Below are positions 3,236 to 40,451 of a DNA stretch of 64,000 nt, one piece after another. Numbering within the stretch: the first letter of the stretch is position 1; the number at the start of each line of letters is the position of its first letter. The notes under the pieces are model-generated. The model saw only the letters and a program-made list of their open reading frames with translations, had not been told where the DNA came from and made no database searches. A program made the position numbers and the translations under genes. This DNA comes from Patescibacteria group bacterium (GTDB lineage Bacteria > Patescibacteriota > Minisyncoccia > Phycocordibacterales > PALSA-1337), in assembly GCA_024654575.1 (NCBI GenBank), contig JANLHG010000020.1, forward strand, positions 55,991 to 119,990, in the 5' to 3' direction.

Positions 3236-3365
3236 ACTGAGTATATTTAGTGAGAGGGGTACGGGGGGCGGTTTGACTGGTGCCATACTAGGTACGGCAT
3301 GATGTAGGGTAAAGATTCCTTCCGTACCCGCGAGGTTTGTTGTAGAAAGGGGTGGTTTGGTTTTA
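3236..3365. ncRNA. GC-rich intergenic island, candidate structured RNA (unclassified)
   Basis: GGTACGG / CCGTACC complementary segments and G-runs in an otherwise AT-rich intergenic region; no ORF. Confidence 0.2.
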
Positions 3366-3519
3366 TTTCTGTTTTAAAAGTGAGGGACCAAAAAAAATTC
3401 CGCAAAAAATTACAGAAAATGGGATTGTAGTTTTTAATAATGAGATGTATTATTAAAGAGTTAGTAAAATTGAATATAGTAATCTAAATCAGTGAGTAAT
3501 CGCTGACATGATGAAAAGT

Positions 3520-3587
3520 CCAGACACGGGTAGAAAACCTATCATATTAGGATCGCCGTGTCTGGCCGTACCAGAGAAATTTGGTAC
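3520..3587 (+). promoter_or_regulatory. Two adjacent perfect hairpins (CCAGACACGG-N26-CCGTGTCTGG; GTACCA-N8-TGGTAC) in the leader of the 3642.. gene
   Basis: 10-bp and 6-bp perfect inverted repeats read directly from sequence. Confidence 0.35.
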
Positions 3588-3641
3588 TGGAGAACCGAAA
3601 GGAACTCGCTTAATGTGGTAGGTTTTTTGCGTGTAGAAATT

Positions 3642-3899
3642 ATGAATAATCTATTAGAACAAATTTCTAAAAAACTAGATATCAAACCAAATCAGAATCT
3701 TATTGGTTTGACTATAGGATTAATTACCGTAGGTGTAGCGGAATTCTTTTCTCTCAGATATCTATTTGTATTCGGATCAATAACTACAATTATATTTTTA
3801 CTATCCGTAGAGTCCACCACACGCTCTTATACAAAAAATTATTGTTTAAATAAAATGATTGAAATTTCAGATAAGAAAAAAGTTAATAACATACTATAA
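3642..3899 (+). CDS. small membrane protein (start trimmed to MNNLLEQ...)
   Basis: hydrophobic TM segments; ORF-track start 3558 overlaps hairpin so internal Met preferred. Confidence 0.35.
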   Translation: MNNLLEQISKKLDIKPNQNLIGLTIGLITVGVAEFFSLRYLFVFGSITTIIFLLSVESTTRSYTKNYCLNKMIEISDKKKVNNIL

Positions 3900-3904: not shown

Positions 3905-4570
3905 ATGAAAGAAAAAGAAACTATATTAATGCAAGATCAAATTTTATCTAAAAATTGTAATGCCCTTTTGGAGTGGAGAAAACAATTTTCTAGAAAAGAG
4001 TATCCTCAACATGTGGTTAGAAAGATGTTCTATGATTTTTATACCGATCAAGAGCTCTGGCCATTTATTGTAGATATTTTTAATGATATGAGTGACGTTA
4101 GAACTCTTCTAAACTTACGAATATGTGAACATATTGAATACATTGATGAAGTAAACTTCTTATTTGAAGCAAGAAAGAAGTTAAAAACGGAAAAAATTCT
4201 ACCAAGATTAGATGCTTTGTTAAATGAAAATATTCCAGTTGTAAATAATATACGTTTTTCAGATTATTCTCAGATGATAGAAAATGCAATAAATGGTAAT
4301 GATTCTGATCTTGAAAAAATAGAGTATCATTTCATGTTCTATAAGATGACATCAGATCTTATTTCCTTTTGGGCCGCCGCTGGGATTTATGGAAAGAAAT
4401 GGGATGATGCAATGTTTTTTGTTACAGGAATGTTGGTGGGAGGAAAAATTGAAACTTTTGAGGATGTTTTTATGAAGTTTAGTAAGATTTCAGGTCTATA
4501 TCTTGCTGGGATTAATACTACTACTGGCAAAAATTTTGGGAAATATAAGCCTCTCCCTCCTTTTAAATAA
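3905..4570 (+). CDS. hypothetical protein
   Basis: ORF 221 aa. Confidence 0.4.
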   Translation: MKEKETILMQDQILSKNCNALLEWRKQFSRKEYPQHVVRKMFYDFYTDQELWPFIVDIFNDMSDVRTLLNLRICEHIEYIDEVNFLFEARKKLKTEKILPRLDALLNENIPVVNNIRFSDYSQMIENAINGNDSDLEKIEYHFMFYKMTSDLISFWAAAGIYGKKWDDAMFFVTGMLVGGKIETFEDVFMKFSKISGLYLAGINTTTGKNFGKYKPLPPFK

Positions 4571-9320: not shown

Positions 9321-10160
9321 TTACTTCCTAACATTTTCATCAAGTGAATGTCCTTGATTATCTTTCCAAGTATCCCAGCCGTTACAAATACCACCAATAA
9401 TTACATTTCCAGCAGAACTAGGGCTGGTAAATATGTAATCCTTAGTAAAGATATAAGAATTTTCGTCGTGATCTTTGAGAATACCGTCTTCAATCAACCT
9501 GTTTTTTAGTTGTTTACTAGAATTTCTTAAAAAAGACGGCTGTTCTTTTTTTCGAGCAAGCGAATTTTTATAAACTATAAATTCTTCTGTAGGAAGTAAT
9601 GTCCCATGCCCATCTGCACCCTTCAAGGTTACATATTTCATAGAATACATAACGCCACCAATTTGTTTTTTCGAATCTTCAAATACTAGATAGCCAAACA
9701 ATCCAGCCACAAGCTTGATATGTTCGAAACATTGAAAGGCGACTATCTTCTGTGCTTCAGAAAGCCTATTTTCTCTTGGTATTGCAGTATTAGAAATATC
9801 ATATCGATCTGCCTTCTTGGCAGTATCCACAGAAATACTTTCAAGATACTTTATAAGGGCACTGTCCAAACTACCAACGAATATAAAGGCAACATTCCAC
9901 TCATCTTCTTCTCTGTCAGCATCATGCGATATTAGTCTCCCAATAACATTTTCTGATTGGCCAATATATACTGATGGTCGTTCCTTTCCTTCACCGAATA
10001 AAAAATATAATCCAGGTTGTCCTACTTCTTCTCTAGCACGAAGTTCCGCAAGTTTTCCTCTTGGGGCAATAAACACCTTTCCAGTTCTTCCTTCCATTTC
10101 AATTAGCCGAAGTCCCTTTGGGTTATCATTCAGTAGAATTGTTGTTATTACTTGTGCCAT
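9321..10160 (-). CDS. GIY-YIG nuclease family protein with C-terminal uncharacterised domain
   Basis: GLYFLFGEGKERPSVYIGQSENVIGRLISH matches GIY-x(9-11)-YIG plus conserved Arg. Confidence 0.6.
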   Translation of the reverse strand: MAQVITTILLNDNPKGLRLIEMEGRTGKVFIAPRGKLAELRAREEVGQPGLYFLFGEGKERPSVYIGQSENVIGRLISHDADREEDEWNVAFIFVGSLDSALIKYLESISVDTAKKADRYDISNTAIPRENRLSEAQKIVAFQCFEHIKLVAGLFGYLVFEDSKKQIGGVMYSMKYVTLKGADGHGTLLPTEEFIVYKNSLARKKEQPSFLRNSSKQLKNRLIEDGILKDHDENSYIFTKDYIFTSPSSAGNVIIGGICNGWDTWKDNQGHSLDENVRK

Positions 10161-10203
10161 GAAATTATTTAATAGGATTATATCACTTACTTCACTAATT
10201 TGA

Positions 10204-11043
10204 TTATTTTAATTTTTTTGCAATTTCGTATTCTTTTTTAGTAAGCTCTAAATTGCATTTTTTACATTTATATAAATCCGAAAAAGTTCTACTTGAACCA
10301 TATAAACTAGCAGCTTGTGGAAAAATGTCTGAATCTGATCCATCTAAAGAAAAGTCATATGCACCACAACGTGGACATTCTTCGCCAGTAATACTATACC
10401 CATAAGCAGAACTACGTGTATACATTGGAATAGCGAGACCGCCAAAAACCATTGTCTCCAGTGTATTTTTAATTGGTGTTATCTTTGTTTTGACTTCTTC
10501 AATTAAAACTTTCTCTAGTTCTTCTTCAGAGTATTTCTTTTTAGGTTTATTAGCTTTTATTAAATCCTTACCGAATATAGATATTGCTTGAGTAGATATT
10601 TTTTCCCATACTGTTCCTATTTTTTTAACTATATTTTCTCTGTCAGATAAAATACCAGCATCCGACTTATATCCATGAACAAAATGATTTCTAACCTTAT
10701 AAATATCAATTAAGACCTGCATCTCATCATCAGAAAAATCATTTTTGAACATTAATTTATATCTATCGAGGGTTTCTCTTATTCTAATAGTCTCAATATT
10801 CAATTCCTTTCCTTTTATAATTGCCACAAGAGAGTCATTCTCTTTGATTTTAGTATTTTCATAAACCAAAACTGGATTTTCATCATGTAGTTTAATTTTT
10901 AAAATTTTTTCTGTTACAATACAAAAAGAAACCACTATTTCTGGCAAGTCCTCTTGTTTGGTTGGAACATCAAAGAGATACTCGCCGACAACTGAATAGA
11001 GTCTAAGAAGATATTTATAATTTTTATCATTTTTTTCTTTCAT
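10204..11043 (-). CDS. putative HEPN-domain protein with C-terminal zinc ribbon
   Basis: IDIYKVRNHFVHGY (R-x4-H-x-Y HEPN-like motif); C-terminal CPRCG...CKKCN. Confidence 0.45.
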   Translation of the reverse strand: MKEKNDKNYKYLLRLYSVVGEYLFDVPTKQEDLPEIVVSFCIVTEKILKIKLHDENPVLVYENTKIKENDSLVAIIKGKELNIETIRIRETLDRYKLMFKNDFSDDEMQVLIDIYKVRNHFVHGYKSDAGILSDRENIVKKIGTVWEKISTQAISIFGKDLIKANKPKKKYSEEELEKVLIEEVKTKITPIKNTLETMVFGGLAIPMYTRSSAYGYSITGEECPRCGAYDFSLDGSDSDIFPQAASLYGSSRTFSDLYKCKKCNLELTKKEYEIAKKLK

Positions 11044-11048
11044 AATTT

Positions 11049-11981
11049 TTATGAAGGCTTTTTTTCTGATGTATCGATTTTCATATTCTCTATTTTCTCA
11101 GGACCAACATCTTGAATCTTTGCTTCCTCCTTTTTGGTTGGGAGAATCTTATCTATAATTTCAAATATCAATTCTGTAGGTACAACCCTTACTAATCCTG
11201 TTTGTTCAGTAAATACTATCCGTGGTTCTCCTGTCTGTTGGCTAATAGCAATATCAGAGTAGGTTTCTCCAGAACTAATAACTCCAATTAATCCTGCCGA
11301 AGAATTACTTTGAGTGCCTGTAATCGCCACTACCTCAGGCTTGTTGATAACAGGACCTCCACTATTTCCAGGATAAGCAGAGGCATCTATATAAAAGAAA
11401 CAATCTTCTAATACTTCTTCATCAACTCTAGCTATTATCCCTTGTCTCACAATTACGAAATTTCTTGTCTTGCCACTTATGCGCATCGGAAATCCAAGCA
11501 CAAACAATCCATCTCCAGTTGAAATATTTTCTATTGAGAAATCTTTAGCATAAAATATACTGTCCTCTCTAAAAAAGTAAAAATTTATTTTTGCATCATT
11601 AATTGCTACAGCATTAATAGGAAGAACAGCTAAATCAACTTTTTCACTCTCATGCATAAGCCAAAGAGGACTTTTGTCCTCTTTTAATAAAGGTACTTTA
11701 AAGTAATGACTTTTACTATCTAGGGTATTAAACCTAAAAAAGACTTCCTTTAATAGCTCTTTTGTTTTTGGATTTTGGAAAACATGTCTATTTGTTACAA
11801 CAAATAATTTAAAAAGGGGTTGTTTTTGATCATTTTCTCCCACTTTCTTACCAACTAAAAATCCTGTTGCAATTGAAATTTTACTTAATACTCCAGTAGT
11901 GTCTTTATTTTCTACCTCAATTGATACAACTGAATTTAAATATTGTGGTGGTATTAGAGACATAATTTCTATTCCTCCCAA
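11049..11981 (-). CDS. trypsin-like (S1 family) serine protease
   Basis: catalytic triad context TNRHV (His), DLAVL (Asp), GNSGGPV (Ser). Confidence 0.7.
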   Translation of the reverse strand: MGGIEIMSLIPPQYLNSVVSIEVENKDTTGVLSKISIATGFLVGKKVGENDQKQPLFKLFVVTNRHVFQNPKTKELLKEVFFRFNTLDSKSHYFKVPLLKEDKSPLWLMHESEKVDLAVLPINAVAINDAKINFYFFREDSIFYAKDFSIENISTGDGLFVLGFPMRISGKTRNFVIVRQGIIARVDEEVLEDCFFYIDASAYPGNSGGPVINKPEVVAITGTQSNSSAGLIGVISSGETYSDIAISQQTGEPRIVFTEQTGLVRVVPTELIFEIIDKILPTKKEEAKIQDVGPEKIENMKIDTSEKKPS

Positions 11982-14482
11982 AGTTTAGCTAGGGTGTCTT
12001 TAGTCTTTTGTTCATAAATCTCGATCAGTTTTTTATTACCTTCGACGAGAGTACGCTCCGATTCAATACGTTCCACGATTTGTTTTTGAATTCCGAGAGG
12101 TGGAAGAGGAATTTCAAAGCTAGAAACTTGGGCCAAAGATAAATTACTTTGAGCAACGCCCACTTTCAAACCAAGAATTTGGTTCTGAATCATATCTGAT
12201 CTTAAAACTTGTTCGAGGTATTTTGAATTTAGTTCTTTTTTTGGTGAAATTATTGCAAGTGCTTGGTTAGTATTGGCAGGTAATACAGAAGAATCTACCA
12301 AAGCAACTCGTCCAAGAGCGCCGGCGATTGAAAACAAGACATCATTTTCTTCCAACTGAGATCGTTTTAGAGATTCGTTACATTTCTGATTTATATGGGC
12401 AAATTTCTTCTTGATAAAATATCCATCATTATCAATTGATTCTATTTTAATAAAGTTAATTCCACTTTCTTGAAACTCAAATCCATTTGTGGTGGGAGTT
12501 GTCCCTTTTGTTACTCTGTTTGATACTTCTTCTAATTTCACCTTCTTCCACGAAGGATCAATTACTATGATTGGCTTCCAACTTGAAATGATTTGCTTAG
12601 CGCCGGCGATGATGTTTTGGTAGCCGTCTAGTTCAGCGACAATTTGCTGTTGGATTTCTAATGGCGGAATAGGAATTTTTTGATTTGCAATAGTTACATG
12701 CCCTAAATGCTTTTGAATCCCGCCCTTCATTTGCTGTTGTAATAAACCTTGGAATAAATCACTCTCCAGAATATTAAAGAGATATTTTTGATCCACCTTG
12801 TTTTTATCAAAAGAAATTCTAAATAAATTATTGCTTAATATCCCTGGAACAGCCATAAAAGCCCTGCCTGGTGTGCCGGTATTTGCCATAACAAGGTCTT
12901 CAACAGTGACTTCCTTGGTTGCATATATATCTTTAACATAAATTGATTTATCCTCGCCTTTAAAATCTTGTATATATAAATACCTTTTGTAACCACTTCT
13001 AAATTCATTTAACTGCTTTTCTTTAGGTATTTGTACACCCTGAGTAAATTCACAAACATCCCCCAACCTAACTATTGGCCATTTGGCATTGGTGTAATCT
13101 GTTGCTATGCGATAGCGATCTCCAGAAAGATTGTAGTCGCCAGATTCAGTAATCTTTTCTTTTTTCACTAACCAAGCAAAAAAACTACCGTCAGATATAA
13201 GTTGATTTTTTGTTCCCGTTTCAATAGCAATTTTCTGTGCTTTAAGAACATCAAGAGCTGCACCATCATCAGTTAAATCATTTATATGACTATCAGGAAG
13301 TGGTCGTCGACGAGCACCTAAATCAAAACCATCACTTTCAACTTTAATAAATAATATCTCATCTGTTTTCTTTGCTATCTCATTATCAAAAAATAGAATA
13401 CTGGTCTTTACTCCTGCATAAGGATTAAATACACCTTGTGGTAAAGAGACAACAGCATAGAGTCCATCTTCTACAAGATTCTTACGAAGTTGCTTATGTG
13501 CTGTACCGGACTGAAAAATAATACCTTCGGGAACAATAATACCTGCTCGGCCTTGAGGCCTTAGATGGTTCATTATGTAATCCACAAATAACACTTCGGA
13601 CCGGCTAGACTGAATACTAAACTTACTATGGGTGCTAACCCCGCCTTTTGGCGACATAAATGGGGGGTTGGCGAGAATTACAGAGAATTTGTCGCCCCAA
13701 CGTTCATCCATAGAGAGCGTGTCATATTGAAATATTTTTGGATTCTTGAATTGGTGTAGATACATATTGACTTGAGCTATACGGACCATTCCAGGGTCTA
13801 TGTCGTAGCCTTCAAAATTACCCATCAAGTTTTTACGCTGATCAGGGGTCAGAGGTTTTTCCTTTTTCTTTGGATCATTTTTACCGTCGTGTTGCTCGAG
13901 TATGTGTTTGTAGGCACTCACCAAGAATCCTCCAGTACCGCAGGCAGGGTCCAATACTTTGTCTTCCTGTGTCGGATCTACTACATCCACCATAAAATCA
14001 ATAATATGGCGTGGGGTGCGGAATTGTCCCGCATCGCCTTGAGATGACATGATAGAGAGCAGATATTCGTAGGCATTACCCAATTCTTCGGGGTGTGAAT
14101 AATCAAAGTAATTAATTTCCTTCAAAAATAAGCCTAGCACTTCAGGGCTTCGATACGGCAAAAATGCGGACTTAAAAATCTCACGAAAAAGTTGTGGAAG
14201 TTGTTTTGATTCAGAAAACTTTATAAGGGCTTCACTATAGATATTCATTCGCTCTTGATTGCCTATACGAGTATCAGCAAGACGAGTCCACGCATACTGC
14301 TCCAAGTCGCCTACAAAGAACGAGGGATCTCCACCCTGCTTAATCGCAGACTGGTCCATATCATCCATAAACTTGTAGATAAGAGCATTGGTGATCTGAT
14401 CTATTTGAGAAGTTGGATTTGGGACCACGCCGACAAGGACTTGGCGAGCGGCGTCTATATGTCTTTTTGTTTCGGTGTTCAT
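11969..14482 (-). CDS. hsdM/hsdS: Type I restriction-modification fused HsdM (N6-adenine MTase) - HsdS (specificity, two TRDs) polypeptide
   Basis: DPACGTGGFL (motif I), NPPF (motif IV); C-terminal half has two target-recognition domains with conserved spacers IPIPPLEIQQQIV and IPLPPLGIQKQIV; single 837-aa ORF. Confidence 0.85.
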   Translation of the reverse strand: MNTETKRHIDAARQVLVGVVPNPTSQIDQITNALIYKFMDDMDQSAIKQGGDPSFFVGDLEQYAWTRLADTRIGNQERMNIYSEALIKFSESKQLPQLFREIFKSAFLPYRSPEVLGLFLKEINYFDYSHPEELGNAYEYLLSIMSSQGDAGQFRTPRHIIDFMVDVVDPTQEDKVLDPACGTGGFLVSAYKHILEQHDGKNDPKKKEKPLTPDQRKNLMGNFEGYDIDPGMVRIAQVNMYLHQFKNPKIFQYDTLSMDERWGDKFSVILANPPFMSPKGGVSTHSKFSIQSSRSEVLFVDYIMNHLRPQGRAGIIVPEGIIFQSGTAHKQLRKNLVEDGLYAVVSLPQGVFNPYAGVKTSILFFDNEIAKKTDEILFIKVESDGFDLGARRRPLPDSHINDLTDDGAALDVLKAQKIAIETGTKNQLISDGSFFAWLVKKEKITESGDYNLSGDRYRIATDYTNAKWPIVRLGDVCEFTQGVQIPKEKQLNEFRSGYKRYLYIQDFKGEDKSIYVKDIYATKEVTVEDLVMANTGTPGRAFMAVPGILSNNLFRISFDKNKVDQKYLFNILESDLFQGLLQQQMKGGIQKHLGHVTIANQKIPIPPLEIQQQIVAELDGYQNIIAGAKQIISSWKPIIVIDPSWKKVKLEEVSNRVTKGTTPTTNGFEFQESGINFIKIESIDNDGYFIKKKFAHINQKCNESLKRSQLEENDVLFSIAGALGRVALVDSSVLPANTNQALAIISPKKELNSKYLEQVLRSDMIQNQILGLKVGVAQSNLSLAQVSSFEIPLPPLGIQKQIVERIESERTLVEGNKKLIEIYEQKTKDTLAKLWEE

Positions 14483-14486
14483 AGTT

Positions 14487-14936
14487 TTACATTATTCCTT
14501 TAAATTGTTCTTTTGTCTGTCCTATACTTTCACTGGCATTTTTCCCATCAGCCGAATATAATTCCTTCCAATCATATTCTCTAAAATTACTTTTCTTTTT
14601 CCACGATGAATATTCGTCATAAGAAATAGGGGGTTGTGGAGAATTACCATTTAGGCTAATCAGTGGAGTTTCTGGTTCAATCTTTTTAAGATACGCTACC
14701 GCATCTTCTCTTTTTGAAAAATGATTTATTGTAAAAAGAGGGTAACGATTACAATTCCTATATGTTGCAACGCACCATATAAAATCAGTTGGCGGTTGCT
14801 CATGATAGATCTTTGTCCAAACGGCTCCATCAGCGTTAGGTTCTATTTCAACTGTCCCTTTACACAAATACAAGACAAAAATTCTGTCATCAAAATAATT
14901 CTGTCCTTGAAATTCAATTGTGTTTAGGTGATTCAT
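14487..14936 (-). CDS. hypothetical protein inserted between hsdR and hsdMS
   Basis: ORF 149 aa, 2-4 nt spacing to neighbours. Confidence 0.4.
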   Translation of the reverse strand: MNHLNTIEFQGQNYFDDRIFVLYLCKGTVEIEPNADGAVWTKIYHEQPPTDFIWCVATYRNCNRYPLFTINHFSKREDAVAYLKKIEPETPLISLNGNSPQPPISYDEYSSWKKKSNFREYDWKELYSADGKNASESIGQTKEQFKGIM

Positions 14937-14939
14937 ATT

Positions 14940-17507
14940 TTAATTCATAAAAGTGTTAAGAGACACATAATCTTTTACATATGTAGGGACTGTAGTCTTG
15001 AAGCCATTGAGTCTCTGATATTCTTCGAAATCAAATGAGGCGCAAAAATTAAGCTGTGCTAATTGCTTAGTCTCAATAATCTCTCGAACTTGCGGATCTA
15101 CTATATATGCTTTGAAAAAGCTTTTAACTGGCGCATAGTGCTCTTGATCTACTGTATTTACTTCCGTGAATTTACTCCATTCTGATTCAAGTAACTCATC
15201 TTTGGATTCAAAATTACTTTTCTGTCCAAAAGCGACCTGTAGAAATTCACGAATAGTAATGCGACGATCAACATTAAAAGTTTTTCTAATTCCTTGTAGA
15301 TTAAGAAAGTGATTTGGTTTGTCGAAAATGTTGGTTTTAGTATAGTCTTCAGCTGCTGCTACGTCTCCATTATTCCAAAGGTTCTTTAACGTTTCGTTGG
15401 CAAGCACATCTTCTTCTACAGCACGCTTGAAGCCTTCGCGGTCAATACGCATACCTTCGGAGCCAATATGTTTTTCTGAAATTGTAGCAAGCTCATCCTG
15501 TGTAGCTAAATCTATTGGGCCTTTGAAAATATTAGTGCCATCTTCGTCAACGAATATATCTGAACCACCGGAATCTTTACCAGTTGTTGTATCAGTTTCT
15601 TTTATCTTCTTAATCTTCGGAAGTTTAATCTTTTCGTCATATTTAAATTCATTTTCAAAATATTCACAAGTAGCAAAAAAATCAAAGAATTTGAAATGTT
15701 CTTTATGTTTTGTGATAGTTTCTTTTGTTGCATAATCAATATATTCAAATTGATATTTTCTTGTGCCTCTTCCTTTAATTTGCACAAACTCCGCAGGGCT
15801 AAACACTGGACGCATCAGTGCTAAGTTTAAAATATCTTGACAGTCATAACCTGTAGTCATCATTCCAACAGTAACCGCTATGCGACTTTTACTAGAATCA
15901 TAACCCTCAGGACTTTTAACTTTGCCATTAAGCATATTATTAGAGAAGTTAATGGTCATTTGTTGAGCATTTTGGACCAAAGAAGTCACTTGCACGGCAA
16001 AATTTGATTCACTGTATTGTTCTGGCCATTTTTCAAAAGCCAGTTTGTTTAATATATTAGTTATTCTTGAAGCATGCTTTTGAGACACACAGAAAACAAT
16101 TGATTTTCCAAACAAGTCCAAATTATATTTTTTAGCAACAGGATCAAAGAGTCCGTTATCTATAAACGCTTTACACATTGCGATATTAGTTTCTTCGTTA
16201 AAGAATTTTCTTTCGTAATGACGTTCATTAAACACTTCGTTGATTGTCTCTCCTTGCTCTGTGGTGGAATGGACCGCATAACCATCTTCTGAGAGAAGTT
16301 CTGTGGTAATATCTGTGCGAGCGTCTACTACTATAGGATTTATAAGAAAACCATCTTTAACACCTGAAAGTAAATCATAGCTGAATGTTGGTTTACCTGA
16401 CTCGCATCCGAATGTCTTATATGTATCTAATAACTGTCTTCGTTCAAACTCTCTCTGTGTATCCGCACCTTCGCCATCAAATCCTTTGAGATAGTTTTTT
16501 GGCGTTGCGGTAAGTCCTAATTTATAGCCCACAAAGTATTCAAATACCGCACGACTGTTGCCACCAATGGACCTATGACTTTCATCACTGATAGTCAATT
16601 CAAAATCTGTAGGCGAAAATTCTTTTTTATACCTATCACCCGCAAGAAATGTCTGAATAGTAGAAACCACAATTTGAGCATTACGCCATGAATCACGGCT
16701 ATCTTTGTAGATAACACTAGTGTAATCCTTTCCTAAATATTGTTTGAAAGCTTTTTGTGCTTGTTCCTCAAGCTCTATGCGATCGACTAGAAATAGGATA
16801 CGACGAGCATTACCTGATTTAAGAAATAATTTTATGACTGCGGCAGAAATAAGCGTTTTACCAGTCCCAGTAGCCATTTCAAATAAGAATCTATTTTTAT
16901 TTTCAAATGCAGAAGATTGTAAACTTTTAATTGCCCCAACTTGATATGGACGCAATTGTTTAAGGTTATTATTATGTAGAAATTCTCGTTTCTTTGATTC
17001 GTCTTTAAAATCAGGATCATTAGCATAGCTAGGCATTTGCGATTCAATAATATAGTTTTCGTCTACTTTTGTACTAGCTAGTTCTGAAGGATTAGGAATA
17101 TATTTTTCATATTGTGTAATAGATTCTTGTGTTGGAAAACGGGAAATAGTATCAGGATTGCCATGTTTTGTATCCCATAAATAATGAATGTTGCCATTGG
17201 ATAATATAACGAATCGAGCATTTACAGTACGAGCATAATTTTTAGCTTGATCTTTAGCCGAAAGTGGATCGATCGATTCTTTCTTTGCCTCTACTACAAC
17301 AAGAGCCCTGCCGTCTTTATCTAAAAGAAGAAAATCAATAAATCCGTGCGTCTCTTGTTCAAAGTCGTCTCCAAGTTCTGAATACTTTACTCCTGGCTCA
17401 AGTTCAATATTAGCTTTTCCATTTTTATCATCTTCAAAACGCCATCCTGATTCTTCAAGCAGTTTGTTTATCTTAATACGAGCCGATGCTTCTTTTAATT
17501 TCATCAT
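14940..17507 (-). CDS. hsdR: Type I restriction enzyme R subunit (PD-(D/E)xK nuclease + SF2 helicase)
   Basis: N-terminal FIDFLLLD...VVVEAK nuclease motif; MATGTGKT Walker A; DESH; TATP. Confidence 0.85.
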   Translation of the reverse strand: MMKLKEASARIKINKLLEESGWRFEDDKNGKANIELEPGVKYSELGDDFEQETHGFIDFLLLDKDGRALVVVEAKKESIDPLSAKDQAKNYARTVNARFVILSNGNIHYLWDTKHGNPDTISRFPTQESITQYEKYIPNPSELASTKVDENYIIESQMPSYANDPDFKDESKKREFLHNNNLKQLRPYQVGAIKSLQSSAFENKNRFLFEMATGTGKTLISAAVIKLFLKSGNARRILFLVDRIELEEQAQKAFKQYLGKDYTSVIYKDSRDSWRNAQIVVSTIQTFLAGDRYKKEFSPTDFELTISDESHRSIGGNSRAVFEYFVGYKLGLTATPKNYLKGFDGEGADTQREFERRQLLDTYKTFGCESGKPTFSYDLLSGVKDGFLINPIVVDARTDITTELLSEDGYAVHSTTEQGETINEVFNERHYERKFFNEETNIAMCKAFIDNGLFDPVAKKYNLDLFGKSIVFCVSQKHASRITNILNKLAFEKWPEQYSESNFAVQVTSLVQNAQQMTINFSNNMLNGKVKSPEGYDSSKSRIAVTVGMMTTGYDCQDILNLALMRPVFSPAEFVQIKGRGTRKYQFEYIDYATKETITKHKEHFKFFDFFATCEYFENEFKYDEKIKLPKIKKIKETDTTTGKDSGGSDIFVDEDGTNIFKGPIDLATQDELATISEKHIGSEGMRIDREGFKRAVEEDVLANETLKNLWNNGDVAAAEDYTKTNIFDKPNHFLNLQGIRKTFNVDRRITIREFLQVAFGQKSNFESKDELLESEWSKFTEVNTVDQEHYAPVKSFFKAYIVDPQVREIIETKQLAQLNFCASFDFEEYQRLNGFKTTVPTYVKDYVSLNTFMN

Positions 17508-17578: not shown

Positions 17579-17787
17579 TAATTTTAAATATATAAATGAA
17601 TCAAAGTAATAGCCATTACTCAGTCTTTCTTTAAACGCTCTCTAGCTACATCTTTAACCAAATCAATAAGAGTATATTCTTCACCAAACCCTTTCTCTTT
17701 TCTTTTCTTTTCCAATCCAGTTTAGTGAAGGCATATTTTAATCTTACCAGTTTTTATATCACATTACTACCACCTATTGACACTATT

Positions 17788-17873
17788 AAAAATTTGGTGT
17801 GCAACTAAAAATTTATCCCCTTTTTTTGATTTTTTTCTTTGAAGCAACCACCCACATTGCTATAATTTAACAT
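17788..17873 (+). promoter_or_regulatory. Copy 1 of ~85-bp conserved promoter element (GTGCAAC...TTTATCCAC...TTGAAG-17-TATAAT)
   Basis: near-identical copies at 37660-37738 and 40338-40420; contains TTGAAG -35 and TATAAT -10 with 17-bp spacer and upstream A/T tract. Confidence 0.5.
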
Positions 17874-18222
17874 GTTGAGTACTGAAATATAATTTTATCT
17901 TTGTTTGTCTAATTTCTTCTCGTTAGTTACTGTAAATAATCGGTAATTAACGGGAGGGCGTTAGAAGGTAATACAGTCAATCCCTCAAATATACTGTAGT
18001 CAAGCATAGACTTAAAAAGCACTGCAAATGAAAACAAAATTTGCAAGATGTTTTCCACTTCCAGACGGCAACATGTGTTGCAAACATTGGAATGGAAACT
18101 ATATCGTCTTTCCCATGAAAGGAGATCATCGTTCAAGAAACGAAAAATCCCCCAATGAGGAGGACGATTCGGAAGAATAAACTACCAAATTTATTTTTCA
18201 ACCCACATTTCAAATTGAAGCG

Positions 18223-18476
18223 TGGGCAGAGGAAGTAATATAAAGCATGATTGGCTCTATAACTTAATGGATAAAGCAACAGATTAGTAATCTGTATCCA
18301 TCACAGGATGATTTATTCTTAAGTCATGATCTCGGTTCGAATCCGAGTAGAGCCGTTTTACTTCCTCTGTCCACTCTTCAAATTTTATAAAGAACGAAAA
18401 ATTACCCCATTTGGGGTGTGAACTAATCTTTTTATTAGAGTAGAATCATGTTTCATTTTTATCACCATATTAAATA
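18223..18476 (+). repeat. Repeated tRNA cassette copy 1: 16-bp inverted repeats (TGGGCAGAGGAAGTAA / TTACTTCCTCTGTCCA) flanking the tRNA-like gene plus ~100-bp conserved tail with CCCCATTTGGGG hairpin
   Basis: second copy at 38076-38313 with the same IRs and >90% identical tail but a different embedded tRNA-like sequence. Confidence 0.55.
18253..18355 (+). tRNA. atypical tRNA-like gene (103 nt): canonical acceptor, D arm (G18G19), anticodon arm (loop UUAGUAA) and T arm (GGTTCGAATCC), but a 35-nt insertion at the variable-arm position
   Basis: manual fold: GGCTCTA/TAGAGCC acceptor, ACAGA-TTAGTAA-TCTGT anticodon arm, CTCGG-TTCGAAT-CCGAG T arm; identity unresolved. Confidence 0.45.
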
Positions 18477-18709
18477 AACCGCGTATGTGTATCGTATTTG
18501 TTACTATATTAACGATACATTCAGTACAGGTACATTATACTATACGGCTAGTTACATAAAAGCAAGTTTCTGGGGAAAACACACATTCTAGGATATAAAA
18601 TATGAAATAAGTATGAATTATTAGTTTATGTCAATATAAGTTATACAATGCTAGTAAAATTAATATTTGGTACGATAACAACAAATGGATAGTTTTGCAT
18701 TAAACATAG

Positions 18710-20922: not shown

Positions 20923-20970
20923 TTCCTAAACACCCAACTCTCCCCTTTCTTAAATCCATAATCAACTCCC
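20923..20970. repeat. 48-bp perfect direct repeat, copy A (second copy 21845-21892)
   Basis: TTCCTAAACACCCAACTCTCCCCTTTCTTAAATCCATAATCAACTCCC identical at both sites. Confidence 0.85.
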
Positions 20971-20982
20971 TTTCAACTCAAT

Positions 20983-21837: not shown

Positions 21838-22044
21838 TTATTTCTTCCTAAACACCCAACTCTCCCCTTTCTTAAATCCATAATCAACTCCCCTTTTATA
21901 TGGTGGCGGAAGCTGAATCGTAAATTCAAAAGGTACACACGGAATCGTTTTTAACCTAAAATTGTTGTCAAAAAAATGTTCGACAGTGTTCGTTTCGTGC
22001 CGATACTTAAACTCATAATAAAAAGATTCTAGCATACTTTTCAA
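21838..22044 (-). CDS. hypothetical protein whose last 16 codons are encoded by the direct repeat
   Basis: ORF 68 aa. Confidence 0.3.
   Translation of the reverse strand: MKSMLESFYYEFKYRHETNTVEHFFDNNFRLKTIPCVPFEFTIQLPPPYKRGVDYGFKKGESWVFRKK
21845..21892. repeat. 48-bp perfect direct repeat, copy B; lies inside the 3' end of ORF 21838..22044
   Basis: identical to 20923-20970. Confidence 0.85.
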
Positions 22045-26178: not shown

Positions 26179-26195
26179 TTCTTTCCTTTTTCGCG

Positions 26196-26229
26196 AATAG
26201 CCCGTTTAACGATGGGCTATTTCTTTTTT
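26196..26229. terminator. bidirectional intrinsic terminator AATAGCCC-N10-GGGCTATT + T-run (copy also at 27269-27302)
   Basis: perfect 8-bp stem then TTCTTTTTT. Confidence 0.5.
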
Positions 26230-26501
26230 ATATAACCGACAATAGCACCAATTAGTGAACCGATGATGAACCAAATAGGAATGCTCAAAATTGGTGCATA
26301 AACTTCAGCAAAAATCCAACTATAGCCAAAAACTGGTGCTAATAGATTCAGTAAAAATATAACTGGATATATCGGACTTACTATATAAAAAACTAAACAA
26401 AAATAGTCAAAACAAAAACTTACCAATAAATAAAACACAAACGCCACCCCTCCCCCAATCACCCCTCCTTTTAACCAATATGGCATTTTTTTATTATTCA
26501 T
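26217..26501 (-). CDS. small membrane protein, paralog 1
   Basis: MNNKKMPYWLKGGVIGGGV... / ...IGSLIGAIVGYIKKK termini identical to 27290..27583. Confidence 0.5.
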   Translation of the reverse strand: MNNKKMPYWLKGGVIGGGVAFVFYLLVSFCFDYFCLVFYIVSPIYPVIFLLNLLAPVFGYSWIFAEVYAPILSIPIWFIIGSLIGAIVGYIKKK

Positions 26502-26635
26502 AATTATATTATAACATAAATTATCATTTTTTTATTATCTATGATATAACATTTACCAGATTATAGATCATATAAAAACTAAAAAAAGATGTTACATGGC
26601 TACCATAATACTTGATGGCTTTTATCGTATAAGAG

Positions 26636-27235
26636 GTGCGACTGTTCGTCTCACAGACGACGGGTTTATCGCAGAGAAAATTGTACATGCCGAAAGTCGG
26701 GATCGTGCAGTTTATCTCTATTCTCCAGTGGTATTGGAATTACTTAACCAACAAAATTGGTTCAGTACATAAGGTACTCATCGTTGATGACCCTTATTGT
26801 GAAGTTTTCTACACTCCAGATTTTTTGTGCACTTTGCGCAAGAATAATTATTTATCTGAAGATGTAATACAGCGTGTTATTTCTGAATCACAAGGAGTAC
26901 TTCAGAAAAACACTTCATTGGGAAAGTCACATCATCCTTCAAATACGCTTATGATGGTAAAACGGCGACGCAAAATACCACATTGGGTAGCACCCAGTAT
27001 TTATGGAGATGACAACGGGACACTTTTCTATAGAATGACTGCGCGTTCACAGATTTCCCACAATGGTGAACATATTCGTAGTAGAAAAATACGATTAGTG
27101 CGTCTTCAGGCGAAAAATGTTCCTAACGCTGTCAAGGAAATTGTTAAAGATGGACTCTTTGACAGTCATATGAGACAAACGGCGCATTTCAAAAACAACG
27201 GTTTTCGTTCATTGGTTAAGCGATACGCGCTATAA
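26636..27235 (+). CDS. hypothetical protein in a compositionally distinct segment between the two paralogs
   Basis: ORF 199 aa, higher GC than flanks; start uncertain. Confidence 0.3.
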   Translation: MRLFVSQTTGLSQRKLYMPKVGIVQFISILQWYWNYLTNKIGSVHKVLIVDDPYCEVFYTPDFLCTLRKNNYLSEDVIQRVISESQGVLQKNTSLGKSHHPSNTLMMVKRRRKIPHWVAPSIYGDDNGTLFYRMTARSQISHNGEHIRSRKIRLVRLQAKNVPNAVKEIVKDGLFDSHMRQTAHFKNNGFRSLVKRYAL

Positions 27236-27289
27236 GCTTTTCTAATCGCTCCCCTTTCCTTTTTCGCGAATAGCCCGTTTAACGATGGG

Positions 27290-27583
27290 CTATTTCTTTT
27301 TTATATAACCGACAATAGCACCTATTAGTGAACCGATGAGGAACCAGATTACTAATTCGATAGAAAAAATTAGTAGAGATGAGAAAGAGTAAGATGATGG
27401 AAAAGATAATAAAATATTAATAATTGGTATTGATGGAATACTAAATAATAAACATTCTAAACCCCAAGAATCAGATGATGTAAATAAATATAAACATGAA
27501 GTACTTAAAATGTAAGAAACTATTAACACCCCACCCCCAATCACTCCTCCTTTTAACCAATATGGCATTTTTTTATTATTCAT
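27290..27583 (-). CDS. small membrane protein, paralog 2
   Basis: shares N- and C-terminal ~20 aa and 95-bp downstream repeat with paralog 1. Confidence 0.5.
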   Translation of the reverse strand: MNNKKMPYWLKGGVIGGGVLIVSYILSTSCLYLFTSSDSWGLECLLFSIPSIPIINILLSFPSSYSFSSLLIFSIELVIWFLIGSLIGAIVGYIKKK

Positions 27584-27596
27584 ATTTTTAAATTAA

Positions 27597-30460: not shown

Positions 30461-30841
30461 ATGATTATGATTAAGACAAAACTTAGTAAGAGTAAGGTAC
30501 ATGGTATGGGTTTATATGCTGACCAATTTATACCAAAAGGAACTATTACTTGGATTTATTCTGATAAATATGATCAGTCATTTACAAAAAAAGATGTTGA
30601 AAAAATGGATGATATAACTAAGAAACAATTTTTCAAGTACGCTTATTGGGATAAAACTATAAAGAAATACGTTTTATGTTTTGATGATCAGAGATTTATT
30701 AATCATTCATCGAAGCCAAATATATTGTCAACTCAAAAAAAAGATGTTGCTAGCAGAGACATAAAAAAAGGAGAAGAACTTCTTTGTGATTATACAAAAT
30801 TTGATGAGAATTATTTTGATAATATAGGTTTTAAACATTAA
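30461..30841 (+). CDS. minimal SET-domain protein (putative protein lysine methyltransferase)
   Basis: GMGLYADQFIPKG, RFINHSSKPNI, GEELLCDY match SET signatures; 126 aa. Confidence 0.75.
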   Translation: MIMIKTKLSKSKVHGMGLYADQFIPKGTITWIYSDKYDQSFTKKDVEKMDDITKKQFFKYAYWDKTIKKYVLCFDDQRFINHSSKPNILSTQKKDVASRDIKKGEELLCDYTKFDENYFDNIGFKH

Positions 30842-30856
30842 CATAATCAAAAAACC

Positions 30857-31267
30857 ATGCTAAAAGTTAAAACAAAATTACAGATGAGTCATATTCATGG
30901 AATCGGGCTTTTTGCTGACCAATTTATACCAAAAGGAACAATCACATGGGAATATGATCCTCATTTTGACATAAGTTACACTGAACAAGAATTAAAAAAA
31001 TTACCAAAATGGACTAAAGAGCAATTTTTGAAATATTCTTATTTTGATGAAAAAATTAAAAAATATATTTTATGTGCAGATGATCAAAGATTTATTAATC
31101 ACTCTATAGACCCTAATATATTATCTACACCTAATTTTGATAAAGCGGGAAAAGACATTCAACCTGGAGAAGAACTAGTCTGCAATTATAAAGACTACGA
31201 ATCAGATTGGTTTGAACGCCGAGGAATAGATGAAAAAGATTTTACCTATATTGTAAAAGGAAAATAA
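30857..31267 (+). CDS. minimal SET-domain protein, tandem paralog
   Basis: GIGLFADQFIPKG, RFINHSIDPNI, GEELVCNY; 136 aa. Confidence 0.75.
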   Translation: MLKVKTKLQMSHIHGIGLFADQFIPKGTITWEYDPHFDISYTEQELKKLPKWTKEQFLKYSYFDEKIKKYILCADDQRFINHSIDPNILSTPNFDKAGKDIQPGEELVCNYKDYESDWFERRGIDEKDFTYIVKGK

Positions 31268-34833: not shown

Positions 34834-35610
34834 TTATTTATTGTAATTTTGTATTCGTTTGTTTGCTAAATCCACATATTTTTTTTCTTTTTCGATTCCA
34901 ATCCAGTTTCTCTCAAGTGCCTTTGCGACAACAGCTGTCGTGCCACTTCCTAAAAATGGGTCAAGAATTAAATCACCTTTTTTACTAGAAGTTAAAATTA
35001 CTTGTTGAATAAGTTTTAATGGTTTTTGTGTGGGATGTGATTTTATTCCATTTTCATCTCGTAATCGTTCCTTACCTTTACATAAACCAAACACCCAGTC
35101 AGTATCTTTCATTTGTTTTCCACCGTTTATTTTTTTTAAGAAATCATTATTAAAAGTGTAATTTTTACAATTTTTATTTTTTACAGCCCAAATTAAAATT
35201 TCGTGATTATTTGTAAATCTTCTACCATTAAAATTTGGCATAGCATCAGTTTTGACCCAAATCACATCATTTAAAAACCATAACCCTAAGTCTTGCATAA
35301 TTTTACCAACTCGAAAAACATTATGGTACATACCCATTACCCAAATCGTTCCAGTTGGTTTCAATATTCTTTGACATTCTTTAATCCAATTACCTGTAAA
35401 AGTATCGTAATCTTCATAGCTTTCAAATTTATCCCATTCATCATTTACAGGAATTACTTCCGTTCCGTTTTCTCGTATAAGTTTTCTATTTTTCGGCAAT
35501 TGTAAATTATATGGTGGATCAGCAAAAATTAAATCAAAACTATTATCAGGAAATGTTTTTAATACCTCTAAACAATCACCATAAATTATGGTATTAACTA
35601 TTTTTTTCAT
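34834..35610 (-). CDS. beta-class DNA methyltransferase (N6-adenine or N4-cytosine)
   Basis: FADPPYN (motif IV) before SHPTQKP and LDPFLGSGTTAVVA (motif I): circularly permuted beta order. Confidence 0.8.
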   Translation of the reverse strand: MKKIVNTIIYGDCLEVLKTFPDNSFDLIFADPPYNLQLPKNRKLIRENGTEVIPVNDEWDKFESYEDYDTFTGNWIKECQRILKPTGTIWVMGMYHNVFRVGKIMQDLGLWFLNDVIWVKTDAMPNFNGRRFTNNHEILIWAVKNKNCKNYTFNNDFLKKINGGKQMKDTDWVFGLCKGKERLRDENGIKSHPTQKPLKLIQQVILTSSKKGDLILDPFLGSGTTAVVAKALERNWIGIEKEKKYVDLANKRIQNYNK

Positions 35611-35630
35611 AAAAATACAATAAAACCAAA

Positions 35631-36425
35631 CTATTCATCATATCTAATTTTTTTATATAGATTATCAAATATCTCAATTATTTCTTTATCTTCACTAACT
35701 TCTTTTAAGTAACCATCTAAATCTTCATATCTTATTGAAAAAAATTTATTAAATAAATCTGATCCACGACTTATATAATTCTTTTCTGGAACATAAATAT
35801 TACCTTTCATTCTTTTATAATTAAAGTAATATAGAATTGGTTTTAGATCATTAATATCATTTATTTTTAACTCTTTTACAAGACCTGCATAAGTCTTTAT
35901 GAATTTTCTATTAATATCTACAAACTTCCCTGTATCATGGTCATCATTATATTTAATTTCTAAATAATAATATTTTTTATCTTTTTTATCTTTAAATAAA
36001 CAATCTATATCATGTTTGTTTTCGATAAGATGTACTTTCTGTTTTTGTTCTCGGATAATATCATTTAAAAGTTTTTCAAATTTTTCTGTCAATTTATCAT
36101 CAGTATTATTTTGGCTATTTGATATAAACTTATCTATTATACTATCAGTATTTTCTGTTAAAGATAATTTAATATTCTTTTTACCAGAAAGATGTGGAAT
36201 TATTTCTAGATTTTTTTCTGACTCAACGATTTTATGTATTAATACTTCTATAAAATTACCAAATTGAATATTTAAAGATTGTAATAATCCACCAAAAACA
36301 CGATATTTAACGGGAACAAAATGTAACTTAACTTCGTGTTTTTTTGTTATTAAACCTATTTTATTTTTATTTGACGTATTATTTAGAAGTTCAATAACAG
36401 CGTCCTTTATTAATTTTTTAATCAT
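35631..36425 (-). CDS. putative Type II restriction endonuclease (no recognisable motif; positional inference)
   Basis: 264-aa ORF sandwiched between, and overlapping by 4 nt with, two MTase genes. Confidence 0.4.
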   Translation of the reverse strand: MIKKLIKDAVIELLNNTSNKNKIGLITKKHEVKLHFVPVKYRVFGGLLQSLNIQFGNFIEVLIHKIVESEKNLEIIPHLSGKKNIKLSLTENTDSIIDKFISNSQNNTDDKLTEKFEKLLNDIIREQKQKVHLIENKHDIDCLFKDKKDKKYYYLEIKYNDDHDTGKFVDINRKFIKTYAGLVKELKINDINDLKPILYYFNYKRMKGNIYVPEKNYISRGSDLFNKFFSIRYEDLDGYLKEVSEDKEIIEIFDNLYKKIRYDE

Positions 36426-37498
36426 ATTTTTAAATAAGTGTTTATATAATCCTGTCTTAAATCGTTGATCAGTACAAGTTGTCCTCTACGTTTAATATAC
36501 CAAAATGTCCAACCGTTATTTGTTTCTTTATTTAATAATCTAGCACTAACTTTATGAATTGATCCAATTTCCTCATTTGATGATAAGGTCGAATCTGCTA
36601 ATACTACCGCCTTTTTATCTCCATTCTTTAAATAAAGATTTTCACCAACATTAATTAAACCAGACTCAACTAAATTACCAAATGGAACTTTGGGATTTCT
36701 TGACTCAATCGGATATAGTAGTAGTTTTTCATCAATTAATTTAACTTTTTTTATTCTATCATTTGCTACTTTTATATAAAAATTCTCTTTTTCTATCCCT
36801 ATAAAATTTCTTCTCATTTTTTTTGCTACAGCTCCAGTTGTGCCACTTCCCATAAAAGGATCTAAAATTATATCTCCAATATTTGAAGTTGATAATATTA
36901 TTCTATAAAGTAAAGCTTCCGGTTTTTGAGTTGAATGAGCTTTATTTCCATTTACTTTTATTCTTTCTCCTCCACTACATATAGGTATGTACCAATCACT
37001 TCTCATTTGTTTATCATCGTTGAATGCTTTCATAGATCTATAGTGAAAAGTTGATTTAGACTTATCACTTTTTGATGCCAGAATCAACGTCTCTTGTGCA
37101 TTGTTAAATCTCGTACCTTTAAAATTAGGCATTGGATTAGTTTTAATCCAAATAATGTCATTCAATATCCAAAAACCAATGTCTTGCATAATTTTACCAA
37201 CTCGAAAAATATTATGATAACTACCAATAACCCAAATTGAACCATCTTTTTTTAAAACTCTTTTACATTCTAGTAACCAACTATAAGTAAACTTATCGTA
37301 GTCATCGAAAGAAGGAAATTTATCCCACTTATCATTTACTGCACTTACTTTAGTTTGATTGGGTCTATAAAGATCACCTTTTAGTTGTAAATTATATGGT
37401 GGATCAGCAAAAATAAGATCTACAGAATTTTCTGGTAATTTTTTAAGAGTTTCTATACAATCACCTTTTATTATTGTATTTAAATATTTCTTATCCAT
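36422..37498 (-). CDS. beta-class DNA methyltransferase with C-terminal extension
   Basis: FADPPYN, STQKP, LDPFMGSGTTGAVA; ~120-aa C-terminal extra domain. Confidence 0.8.
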   Translation of the reverse strand: MDKKYLNTIIKGDCIETLKKLPENSVDLIFADPPYNLQLKGDLYRPNQTKVSAVNDKWDKFPSFDDYDKFTYSWLLECKRVLKKDGSIWVIGSYHNIFRVGKIMQDIGFWILNDIIWIKTNPMPNFKGTRFNNAQETLILASKSDKSKSTFHYRSMKAFNDDKQMRSDWYIPICSGGERIKVNGNKAHSTQKPEALLYRIILSTSNIGDIILDPFMGSGTTGAVAKKMRRNFIGIEKENFYIKVANDRIKKVKLIDEKLLLYPIESRNPKVPFGNLVESGLINVGENLYLKNGDKKAVVLADSTLSSNEEIGSIHKVSARLLNKETNNGWTFWYIKRRGQLVLINDLRQDYINTYLKI

Positions 37499-37659
37499 AA
37501 ATTTTATAATCTAATTCTACTGTATGTTCAAATGAAATCATATTTTTGTGAAATTACAGATTTTCAATATAATTATTCTTACTCCATATTATTTCATATT
37601 TTTGAGTTTTTTTCTAGTCAGTTATTTTGAAAGCATTTGTTTTGACAAATACAATAATT

Positions 37660-37738
37660 CAGCGTGCAACCTAAAATTTATCCACATTTTTTGATTTTTT
37701 CTTTGAAGTTATACACCTACATTGCTATAATTTAACAT
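37660..37738 (+). promoter_or_regulatory. Copy 2 of conserved ~85-bp promoter element
   Basis: see 17788-17873. Confidence 0.5.
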
Positions 37739-37875
37739 ATTAGGTATTGAAAATTGAAATTTGTAATTTCTCACTTAACATCTAAATTTGGATTTTGAGT
37801 GAGGAATTAGAAATCGTGACAGCATCCTCTCCATCGTTGACTTGAAATACGAATTGGATAAATAGTCAAAAACCT

Positions 37876-37989: not shown

Positions 37990-38075
37990 CCCTCGTGTTC
38001 AAACAAAAGGCTATTTTCTAAAAAATTAATATAAACTTTCTTACGAATTTTTATATACCCATACCTTTTGAAGGT

Positions 38076-38313: not shown

Positions 38314-38433
38314 TATATATATGTCATACTATTACATGAGTATATTATACTAATCATTTAGACAGTTTATGATAAAAAACTGTGGATAACTATCCTATAT
38401 TACATTAACGAATAAATCAACTTTAGAACTCCC

Positions 38434-40420: not shown

Positions 40421-40451
40421 TTAAATTAATAGATTGATTAAAAAATAATAT

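Follow-up and report, generated by a model that had tools for sequence, protein, structure and literature searches.

How do tRNA genes of unusual type come to lie within long inverted repeats of nearly the same sequence, and does this arrangement act in the RNA, in the DNA, or in both? The question is raised by two cassettes in a 64-kb stretch of DNA (the whole stretch is referred to below as the window), which belongs to a Taylorbacteria-like chromosome of the Paceibacteria (Patescibacteria), the nearest named relatives of its DEAD-box helicase being found in Candidatus Taylorbacteria. Each cassette consists of a tRNA gene bracketed by the two arms of an inverted repeat (IR) and followed by a conserved tail. 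A preliminary description of the window had reported the sequences of these elements, all of which were recovered at their positions in both copies by direct reading, and had considered a processing stem, a mobile tRNA cassette, or an integration hotspot as possible explanations. The explanation preferred here, to which we assign about an even chance as judged from sequence data, is that of an accessory tRNA module in which leader and trailer would form a helix serving processing or stability, and whose tRNA cargo would be swapped by recombination.

Layout of the cassettes and predicted folding

The elements of the two cassettes that frame and include the tRNA genes are the following.

18212-18238, plus strand: copy 1, 5' helix arm at full length, AAATTGAAGCGTGGGCAGAGGAAGTAA
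18223-18238, plus strand: copy 1, left arm core, TGGGCAGAGGAAGTAA
18239-18252, plus strand: copy 1, unpaired 14-nt 5' leader, TATAAAGCATGATT
18253-18355, plus strand: copy 1, tRNA-like gene with the anticodon loop UUAGUAA (anticodon AGU), 54.8 bits with the Rfam tRNA model
18358-18373, plus strand: copy 1, right arm core, TTACTTCCTCTGTCCA
18358-18384, plus strand: copy 1, 3' helix arm at full length, TTACTTCCTCTGTCCACTCTTCAAATT, after a 2-nt trailer
38065-38091, plus strand: copy 2, 5' helix arm
38104-38186, plus strand: copy 2, type II tRNA with the anticodon AUC (called by ARAGORN; Rfam, 50.7 bits)
38190-38216, plus strand: copy 2, 3' helix arm, after the 3-nt trailer CAA

The IR pair brackets both tRNA genes, as had been described, and the same pair indeed encloses a different tRNA in copy 2, where the left arm ends at 38091 and the right arm starts at 38190; the reported length of 16 bp, however, was too short, the arms really extending over 24-27 bp. 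They follow the consensus TTGAAGnGTGG... / ...CCACnCTTCAA and form an imperfect helix with G.U and C.A positions. If up to three mismatches are allowed, the arm motif occurs exactly four times in the window, compared to 0.22 expected occurrences, and no inverted repeat of the window whose arms lie within 250 nt of each other is longer than the arm pair (27 nt, 89% complementary). Folding of the precursors, which had been proposed as a check, predicts that the IRs form a long duplex in both cases, yielding an arm helix with an enclosed tRNA at -77.8 kcal/mol for copy 1 (z = -8.8 relative to shuffled sequences) and -58.6 kcal/mol for copy 2 (z = -5.5). The helix does not directly abut the acceptor stem: 9-14 nt of unpaired 5' leader separate the two on one side, and 2-3 nt of unpaired 3' trailer follow the discriminator base on the other.

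A comparison of the two copies reveals a mosaic pattern of identity. The values amount to 81% for a promoter repeat located further upstream, 54% for the region of a small open reading frame (ORF), which is the background level, 81% for the 5' arm, again only background (57%) for leader, tRNA, and trailer together, and 96% for the 3' arm. The conserved tail after the right arm, which had been noted previously, is 91% identical over 139 nt (89-91%), and identity falls to about 50% beyond it (51%).

Related cassettes in other genomes

The preliminary description had suggested a search for further copies in relatives, and such cassettes are present in three other loci, L004, L005, and L012. When metagenomes were scanned for the two arms, with CAGAGGAAGTAA followed by TTACTTCCTCT after a gap of 84-114, two contigs were returned, L004 and L005, both of which contain true cassettes around other tRNAs. 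L012, which stems from the Hainich site, was found independently, because it encodes the closest homologue (90% identical) of the small protein encoded upstream of the arms in copy 2.

The L004 locus (minus strand, 4073-4445) represents an array of three tRNAs, each lying inside its own leader-trailer inverted repeat. The first tRNA (anticodon GUC) has the same core arms as the window cassettes. The second, a type II tRNA with the anticodon UAA, G73, and a D-loop resembling that of tRNA-Ser, shares only the distal 11 bp of these arms (TTGAAAACTAA), and its arms run straight into the acceptor stem; since this distal segment is common to the first two helices, a 3' arm could also pair across, with the 5' arm of the following helix. 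The third tRNA (anticodon AUU, the L004 gene with A at position 34, 4073-4147) has unrelated arms. L005 is part of a Nomurabacteria-like chromosome and contains one tRNA (3242-3315; anticodon ACU) with a type I body and an Arg-type D-loop, flanked by the same core arms. In L012, the order of elements is small-protein gene, A-tract/hairpin/T-tract, 5' arm, 13-nt leader, tRNA (anticodon GGU), 3-nt trailer, 3' arm, and a related tail. Copy 2 and L012 can be aligned from the ORF and the hairpin following it through the two arms into the beginning of the tail, except for the enclosed tRNAs, which are unrelated; what lies between the arms is thus an exchangeable cargo.

Other searches remained negative. 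No cassette was present in the syntenic relatives identified via the DEAD-box helicase beside copy 2 (L006-L008), two of which (L006 and L007) retain the helicase next to tRNA-Val and contain different genes beyond, nor in the relatives identified via the arginyl-tRNA synthetase (ArgRS) beside the L005 cassette (L009-L011), where a PIF1 helicase takes its place. Among the homologues of the copy-2 small protein, only the closest one is followed by a cassette, and five other contexts lack a following tRNA. A scan of species-representative genomes with the right arm/tail junction yielded one chance match in a coding region and no cassette. Three patterns searched in viral contigs gave one chance match, none, and 120 loci, respectively, and the left arm never exceeded 12/16 matches in these 120 loci; moreover, the whole of copy 2 had no blastn match in phage and plasmid records. 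The absence from syntenic relatives, from the contexts of other homologues, and from the other collections therefore characterizes the module as accessory and sporadic, and it is so far confined to Paceibacteria-like metagenome contigs. No description of a helix-enclosed tRNA module was found in the literature that was searched, and Rfam recognizes only the tRNA part, no family besides tRNA reaching the gathering score in either cassette region of the window. The packaging of accessory tRNAs by a helix is thus apparently undescribed.

Covariation and specificity of the helix

The five cassettes sharing the arm family, which come from four genomes (copy 1, copy 2, and one each from L004, L005, and L012), were aligned for an analysis of covariation. 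Standard pairs account for 89.6% of the helix cells, and compensatory changes on both sides are found in 11 of the 27 pairs. The covariation score of 0.370 compares to 0.178 in shuffled alignments, none of the 500 shuffles reaching the observed value, and pairing falls to 38-51% if the partner strand is slid by 1-3 columns as a control. L012 contributes three double changes within a core that is otherwise identical in the other four cassettes. Since the same module recurs with compensating changes and another tRNA in three other uncultured relatives, it should be regarded as real.

The helix is restricted to non-canonical accessory tRNAs, as shown by the energies of the leader-trailer duplexes: all seven flanked tRNAs fall between -25 and -38 kcal/mol, whereas the three canonical tRNA-Val genes used for comparison (window, L006, and L007) reach only -6 to -8 kcal/mol. 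Its non-Watson-Crick positions also follow a pattern: as read on the tRNA-sense strand, column 21 is G.U in four of the five cassettes and column 22 is C.A in three of five, so that two such columns lie adjacent to each other, 12-13 bp from the tRNA-proximal end and on the same arms each time.

Properties of the enclosed tRNAs

The gene at 18253-18355 had been described as tRNA-like, and its Rfam score of 54.8 bits is well in line with this assignment (gathering threshold of RF00005, 29 bits). It is not called by ARAGORN because of its variable region of about 35 nt, which holds an 8-bp hairpin. It exhibits G73, an Arg-type GGAUA D-loop, and no encoded CCA; its 5' half resembles tRNA-Arg(UCU), with an identity of 91.5% to the tRNA-Arg(TCT) of a crAss-like phage. 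The tRNA of copy 2 is of the tRNA-Leu type with respect to the D-arm (UG-AUG-AAAUUGGUAGA-CAU), the T-arm, and A73, again without an encoded CCA, and its best near-full-length matches are annotated as tRNA-Leu, yet its clean anticodon arm (5 bp/7 nt) reads AUC, an Asp anticodon. The canonical tRNA-Val(GAC) of the window (38886-38958) likewise lacks CCA, but has a G+C content of 66%, compared to 39-43% for the two odd genes. The genes from L004, L005, and L012 score 48-56 bits with RF00005, except for the third L004 gene, which is recognized by ARAGORN only.

Four of the seven helix-flanked tRNAs carry an A at the first anticodon position (A34), their anticodons being AGU, AUC, AUU, and ACU. Bacterial A34 is normally restricted to tRNA-Arg(ACG) and occurs rarely, in some lineages, in tRNA-Leu (PMC8266599). 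The flanked genes do not correspond to tRNAs of canonical decoding, in which the anticodon fits the body and the bacterial wobble rules. At least two bodies contradict their anticodons, namely the type II Leu-like body with AUC and the type I Arg-like body with ACU. The GUC tRNA of L004 has an Asp-like body, yet contains G3:U70 and A73, which are classical alanine determinants. Typing of the other bodies was ambiguous in two cases, and searches with the L005 tRNA and the UAA tRNA of L004 were uninformative. U33 is present in all seven flanked tRNAs, as is G1:C72 wherever it is readable.

Promoter repeat, small-protein genes, and tail

Further elements of the modules are located upstream and downstream of the arms.

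17777-17887, plus strand: copy 1, ribonucleotide reductase (RNR) promoter/operator repeat, present in three copies, with the upstream box GTGCAACTAAAAATTTATCC
18028-18180, plus strand: copy 1, gene for a 50-aa Cys/Cys/His small protein (KFAxCFPxxDGxMVCQHxNGxWIVFP), from the ORF list
18385-18496, unstranded: copy 1, conserved tail, with a hairpin at 18404-18417
37642-37752, plus strand: copy 2, RNR promoter/operator repeat, with TTGAAG-17-TGcTATAAT at 37703-37731
37876-37989, plus strand: copy 2, gene for a 37-aa basic small protein of the KIGRSAKTGKFVPVKKA..STYVVETIK family
38217-38328, unstranded: copy 2, conserved tail, with a hairpin at 38236-38251
40328-40438, plus strand: third promoter/operator copy at its presumed original place, before the class II RNR gene (40452-42764)

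The promoter repeat that had been noticed about 350 nt upstream of the cassettes is thus confirmed in three copies, starting at 17777, 37642, and 40328, with a repeat length of 111 nt. In both cassettes it provides a strong promoter-like site at this distance (10/12 matches with an extended -10), which in copy 1 reads TTGAAG-16-TGcTATAAT (17839-17866). The region preceding the RNR gene of L006 (3890-3990), a relative whose helicase is 89% identical to that of the window, retains both the box GTGCAACnnAAAATTTATCC and the TTGAAG/TGnTATAAT promoter. In view of this conservation and of the third copy preceding the RNR gene of the window, the cassettes therefore carry copies of the RNR promoter/operator, and the presence of two extra copies at the head of tRNA modules implies a co-regulation with deoxynucleotide synthesis. 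In L004, about 8 nt separate the end of an extended -10 element from the 5' arm. Because promoter-like sites are located upstream of the 5' arm, the arms should be transcribed. A promoter inside the left arm was rejected as a candidate: the motif previously given as TTGAAG-17-TATAAA actually has a spacer of 18, and its -10-like hexamer is not conserved across the cassettes, reading CACAAG (copy 2), CATAAG, GAAAAA, or CCTGTT elsewhere, without retention of the final T.

Both small ORFs are real genes, belonging to different families. The 50-aa protein has relatives in 14 representative clusters at E<=1e-3, mostly of 37-57 aa, with F5, C8, F9, C18, H20, N22, G23, F28, and P29 as invariant residues, and the 37-aa protein has 30 homologues with identities of 61-90%. 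Neither family is assigned in Pfam, NCBIfam, or PHROG. Members of the 37-aa family are also encoded near phage-like and defense-like genes in other bacteria. The small ORF of copy 2 is followed by an A-tract/hairpin/T-tract element at 37983-38017.

The hairpin of the tail (CCCCATTTGGGG) scores as a terminator, as had been proposed, but in both window copies it does so for the minus strand, on which side the T-run is located. A convergent promoter-like site is present just past the tail (copy 2, minus strand, 38327-38299; L012, 1710-1683 with 11/12 matches), and the tail may either encode or terminate a small convergent transcript. A putative small convergent RNA in the window would span a 27-codon minus-strand ORF (18385-18468), and the corresponding region of L012 is 1526-1710. 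A long-range pairing between leader and tail was rejected as coincidence, since the single apparent compensatory change between the window copies is absent in L012.

Genomic surroundings

The genes of the window include those for DnaK, AlaRS, TGT, class II RNR, and the DEAD-box helicase, the last of which is 100% identical to a protein of a Patescibacteria metagenome-assembled genome. Both cassettes are oriented divergently beside restriction-modification (R-M) operons. Copy 1 adjoins a type I system with HsdR (14940-17507) and an HsdM-HsdS fusion of 837 aa (11969-14482), and copy 2 adjoins a type II set of methylase, endonuclease, and methylase (34834-37498). The type I system is part of a defense island to the left of copy 1 (9321-17507), which also contains PADLOC candidates, i.e., a trypsin-like PDC-S45, a DUF3644/HEC-08-like, and a PDC-S14 (DUF4357) protein. 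Of the ORFs scanned, about 50 in the window and ten in L004 and L005, none was recognized as encoding an integrase or transposase; for the remaining loci, recombinases were checked via precomputed Pfam matches of called genes only.

Some other features of the window may be recorded here. A LOOT RNA (RF03000) at 3481-3607 (plus strand) scores 57.2 bits, compared to a gathering score of 46.4, and overlaps the start of an ORF (3558-3899) that precedes a peptidase cluster of the S49/NfeD type. Two direct repeats of 51 bp (20923-20973 and 21845-21895, 98% identical) enclose genes for an ASCH-domain protein and a P-loop kinase-like protein. A non-coding block of about 330 bp, including a terminator-like hairpin, is repeated around the ORF at 26636-27235 (26181-26508 and 27254-27590), with segments of 97% and 79% identity, and tandem paralogous genes for SET-domain proteins of 126 and 136 aa are located at 30461-31267.

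Discussion

The long pre-tRNA duplex, or processing stem, is the best supported of the previously considered options, based on the covarying helix in five cassettes, the predicted folds, and the upstream promoter-like sites. The idea of a mobile tRNA cassette holds in a weaker sense, as the module is sporadic and the tRNA differs between homologous loci, but no transposase, integrase, or target-site duplication was seen; no evidence was obtained for an integration hotspot. In the scheme that we prefer, a strong sigma-70-type promoter, i.e., the copy of the RNR promoter/operator, would co-transcribe the small-protein gene and then the tRNA. In the transcript, 24-27 nt of the 5' leader would pair with the 3' trailer, and the resulting long helix would close off the tRNA. 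This helix would act as a maturation or stability element. Most likely, an RNase III-type endonuclease specific for double strands would enter at the helix and cut the pre-tRNA out of the joint transcript of mRNA and tRNA, after which maturation would be completed by RNase P, a 3' endonuclease, and the addition of CCA, given that none is encoded. Finally, recombination within the near-identical arms would exchange one tRNA for another and carry modules into new contexts; with the shared arms serving as homology, the mosaic patterns between the window copies and between copy 2 and L012 would be explained.

If the arms are read as a leader-trailer helix, the closest analogy is provided by the processing stalks of 16S and 23S rRNA, which are cut by RNase III and in which a flanking helix of more than 20 bp likewise encloses the mature RNA and shows compensatory changes. 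The cassettes resemble these stalks in both respects, with a predicted leader-trailer helix of 24-27 bp, exceeding the approximately 20 bp expected of such stalks, and with compensatory substitutions in 11 of 27 pairs. Unlike the rRNA stalks, the helix described here surrounds one tRNA at a time and is confined to accessory tRNAs of non-canonical type; moreover, part of it is conserved in sequence across genomes, and its cleavage is putative. The Y RNAs represented by YrlA also combine a long terminal stem with a tRNA-like fold, but their stem replaces the anticodon arm and YrlA binds Rsr, whereas a full cloverleaf is present here and the stem extends beyond the acceptor stem. Retron msr-msd RNAs do not fit either, as the enclosed RNA is a tRNA cloverleaf and no reverse transcriptase domain is encoded by the flanking ORFs.

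Several points weigh against a purely structural role in the RNA. Four cassettes, representing three genomes, share the 13-bp core GCAGAGGAAGTAA without any difference, which exceeds the need of such a helix and points to sequence-specific recognition or to recent horizontal transfer. Covariation alone is no proof of an RNA role, because protein-bound terminal inverted repeats would also be expected to change in parallel. The strand asymmetry of the wobble positions, with seven G.U-type versus four C.A-type cells on the tRNA-sense strand, favors an RNA role only weakly, and the hairpins following the small ORFs might stop transcription ahead of the tRNA.

A first alternative places the function of the arms in the DNA, where they would be recombination sites or the terminal repeats of a small mobile cassette whose recombinase or transposase is encoded elsewhere, the RNA helix being a by-product. 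We regard this as rather unlikely, although it would account just as well for the identity of the core, for the sporadic occurrence of the module, and for the covariation. It would be in line with the lack of the module in the syntenic loci L006, L007, and L009-L011, with the different cargo between homologous flanks, with the identity of the 13-bp core across Taylorbacteria-like and Nomurabacteria-like candidate families, and with contexts rich in R-M and other mobile-type genes. However, neither an integrase nor a transposase was found among the scanned ORFs, direct reading of the arm ends revealed no target-site duplication, and no copies occur in the viral contigs or the phage and plasmid records searched. 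Moreover, the other two tRNAs of L004 have different arms, and the arm pair that extends the acceptor stem fits an RNA helix better than a shared protein site. The known elements of this kind do not match either. Correia elements of Neisseria likewise have arms of about 26 bp around a short interior, lie in intergenic regions near promoters or terminators, and form a hairpin that is an RNase III substrate when their 26-bp repeats are transcribed. Their interior is conserved and non-coding, in contrast to the variable tRNAs found here, and they generate target duplications and reach hundreds of copies per genome. As judged by the features of such miniature inverted-repeat transposable elements, the cassettes lack both a direct repeat at the flanks, which is absent in all five, and a shared interior, since the tRNAs are unrelated and those of the window copies are identical at about background level (57%). 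Integron attC sites are distinguished by a GTTRRRY core that is missing from the arms, and no integrase was detected in the scanned ORFs. The processing-helix explanation and the DNA-level alternative are not mutually exclusive.

A second alternative, which appears quite improbable, is that the helix serves as a lock. The A34 or hybrid-identity tRNAs would be held as inert precursors until RNR-type induction and a nuclease or helicase release them, leading to conditional recoding or mistranslation, possibly within phage defense. This would give a meaning to the A34 anticodons of four of the seven flanked tRNAs, the Leu body with an Asp anticodon in copy 2, the ACU anticodon (Ser codon AGU) on the type I body with an Arg-type D-loop in L005, G3:U70 and A73 in the GUC tRNA of L004, and the location of both window copies beside R-M and defense-candidate genes. 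There is also a natural precedent for mistranslating A34 tRNAs in Streptomyces, where tRNAProX carries an AGC, AGU, or AUU anticodon on a proline body and mistranslates in vivo (PMC10404621). The tRNAProX genes of Streptomyces and Kitasatospora are likewise accessory, have A34 (AGU, AUU), and contradict their anticodon by their body, but they are marked by A33, C1:G72, and an adjacent ProRS paralogue (PMC10404621), and no flanking helices are reported for them. Of these features only A34 is shared by the tRNAs studied here, which keep U33, have Leu-, Arg-, Ser-, or Asp-like bodies, and are not accompanied by an adjacent synthetase, either in the window or as a dedicated paralogue. In addition, the identity rules applied are those of model bacteria and may not hold in Patescibacteria, the other tRNA bodies were ambiguous or uninformative in typing, and the unpaired leader of 9-14 nt should still admit RNase P. 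By the same model-bacterium rules, the identity elements point to the insertion of Leu at GAU, Arg at AGU, and Ala at GAC/GAU codons. An extended version, in which the modules are regulated carriers of deliberately non-canonical tRNAs and form a conditional recoding or mistranslation device in defense islands, with the helix holding inactive precursors and the RNR operator tying their release to nucleotide stress, e.g., during phage replication, is still more doubtful.

An invertible DNA switch, in which the arms would flip the tRNA gene on or off, is hardly credible: arms of 24-27 bp around an enclosed segment of about 100-120 bp are within the range of known invertons, but the tRNA has the same orientation to outside landmarks in all five cassettes, none of the copies has its asymmetric G.U and C.A positions on exchanged arms, and no invertase or recombinase gene was present among the scanned neighbors.

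Taken as a processing helix, the arrangement is best classed as a known principle that is applied here to accessory tRNA modules, the enrichment of non-canonical anticodons being left unexplained by it. Patescibacteria are uncultured organisms with reduced genomes, and to our knowledge almost nothing is known of their RNA processing. A conserved, covarying helix specific to accessory tRNAs would amount to a new architecture of pre-tRNAs and to a new RNA motif for which metagenomes could be searched. The conserved arms with their exchangeable cargo suggest a simple route for the shuffling of tRNA genes between genomes, and the enrichment of A34 together with the contradictory tRNA bodies indicates that the modules may mark natural altered decoding.

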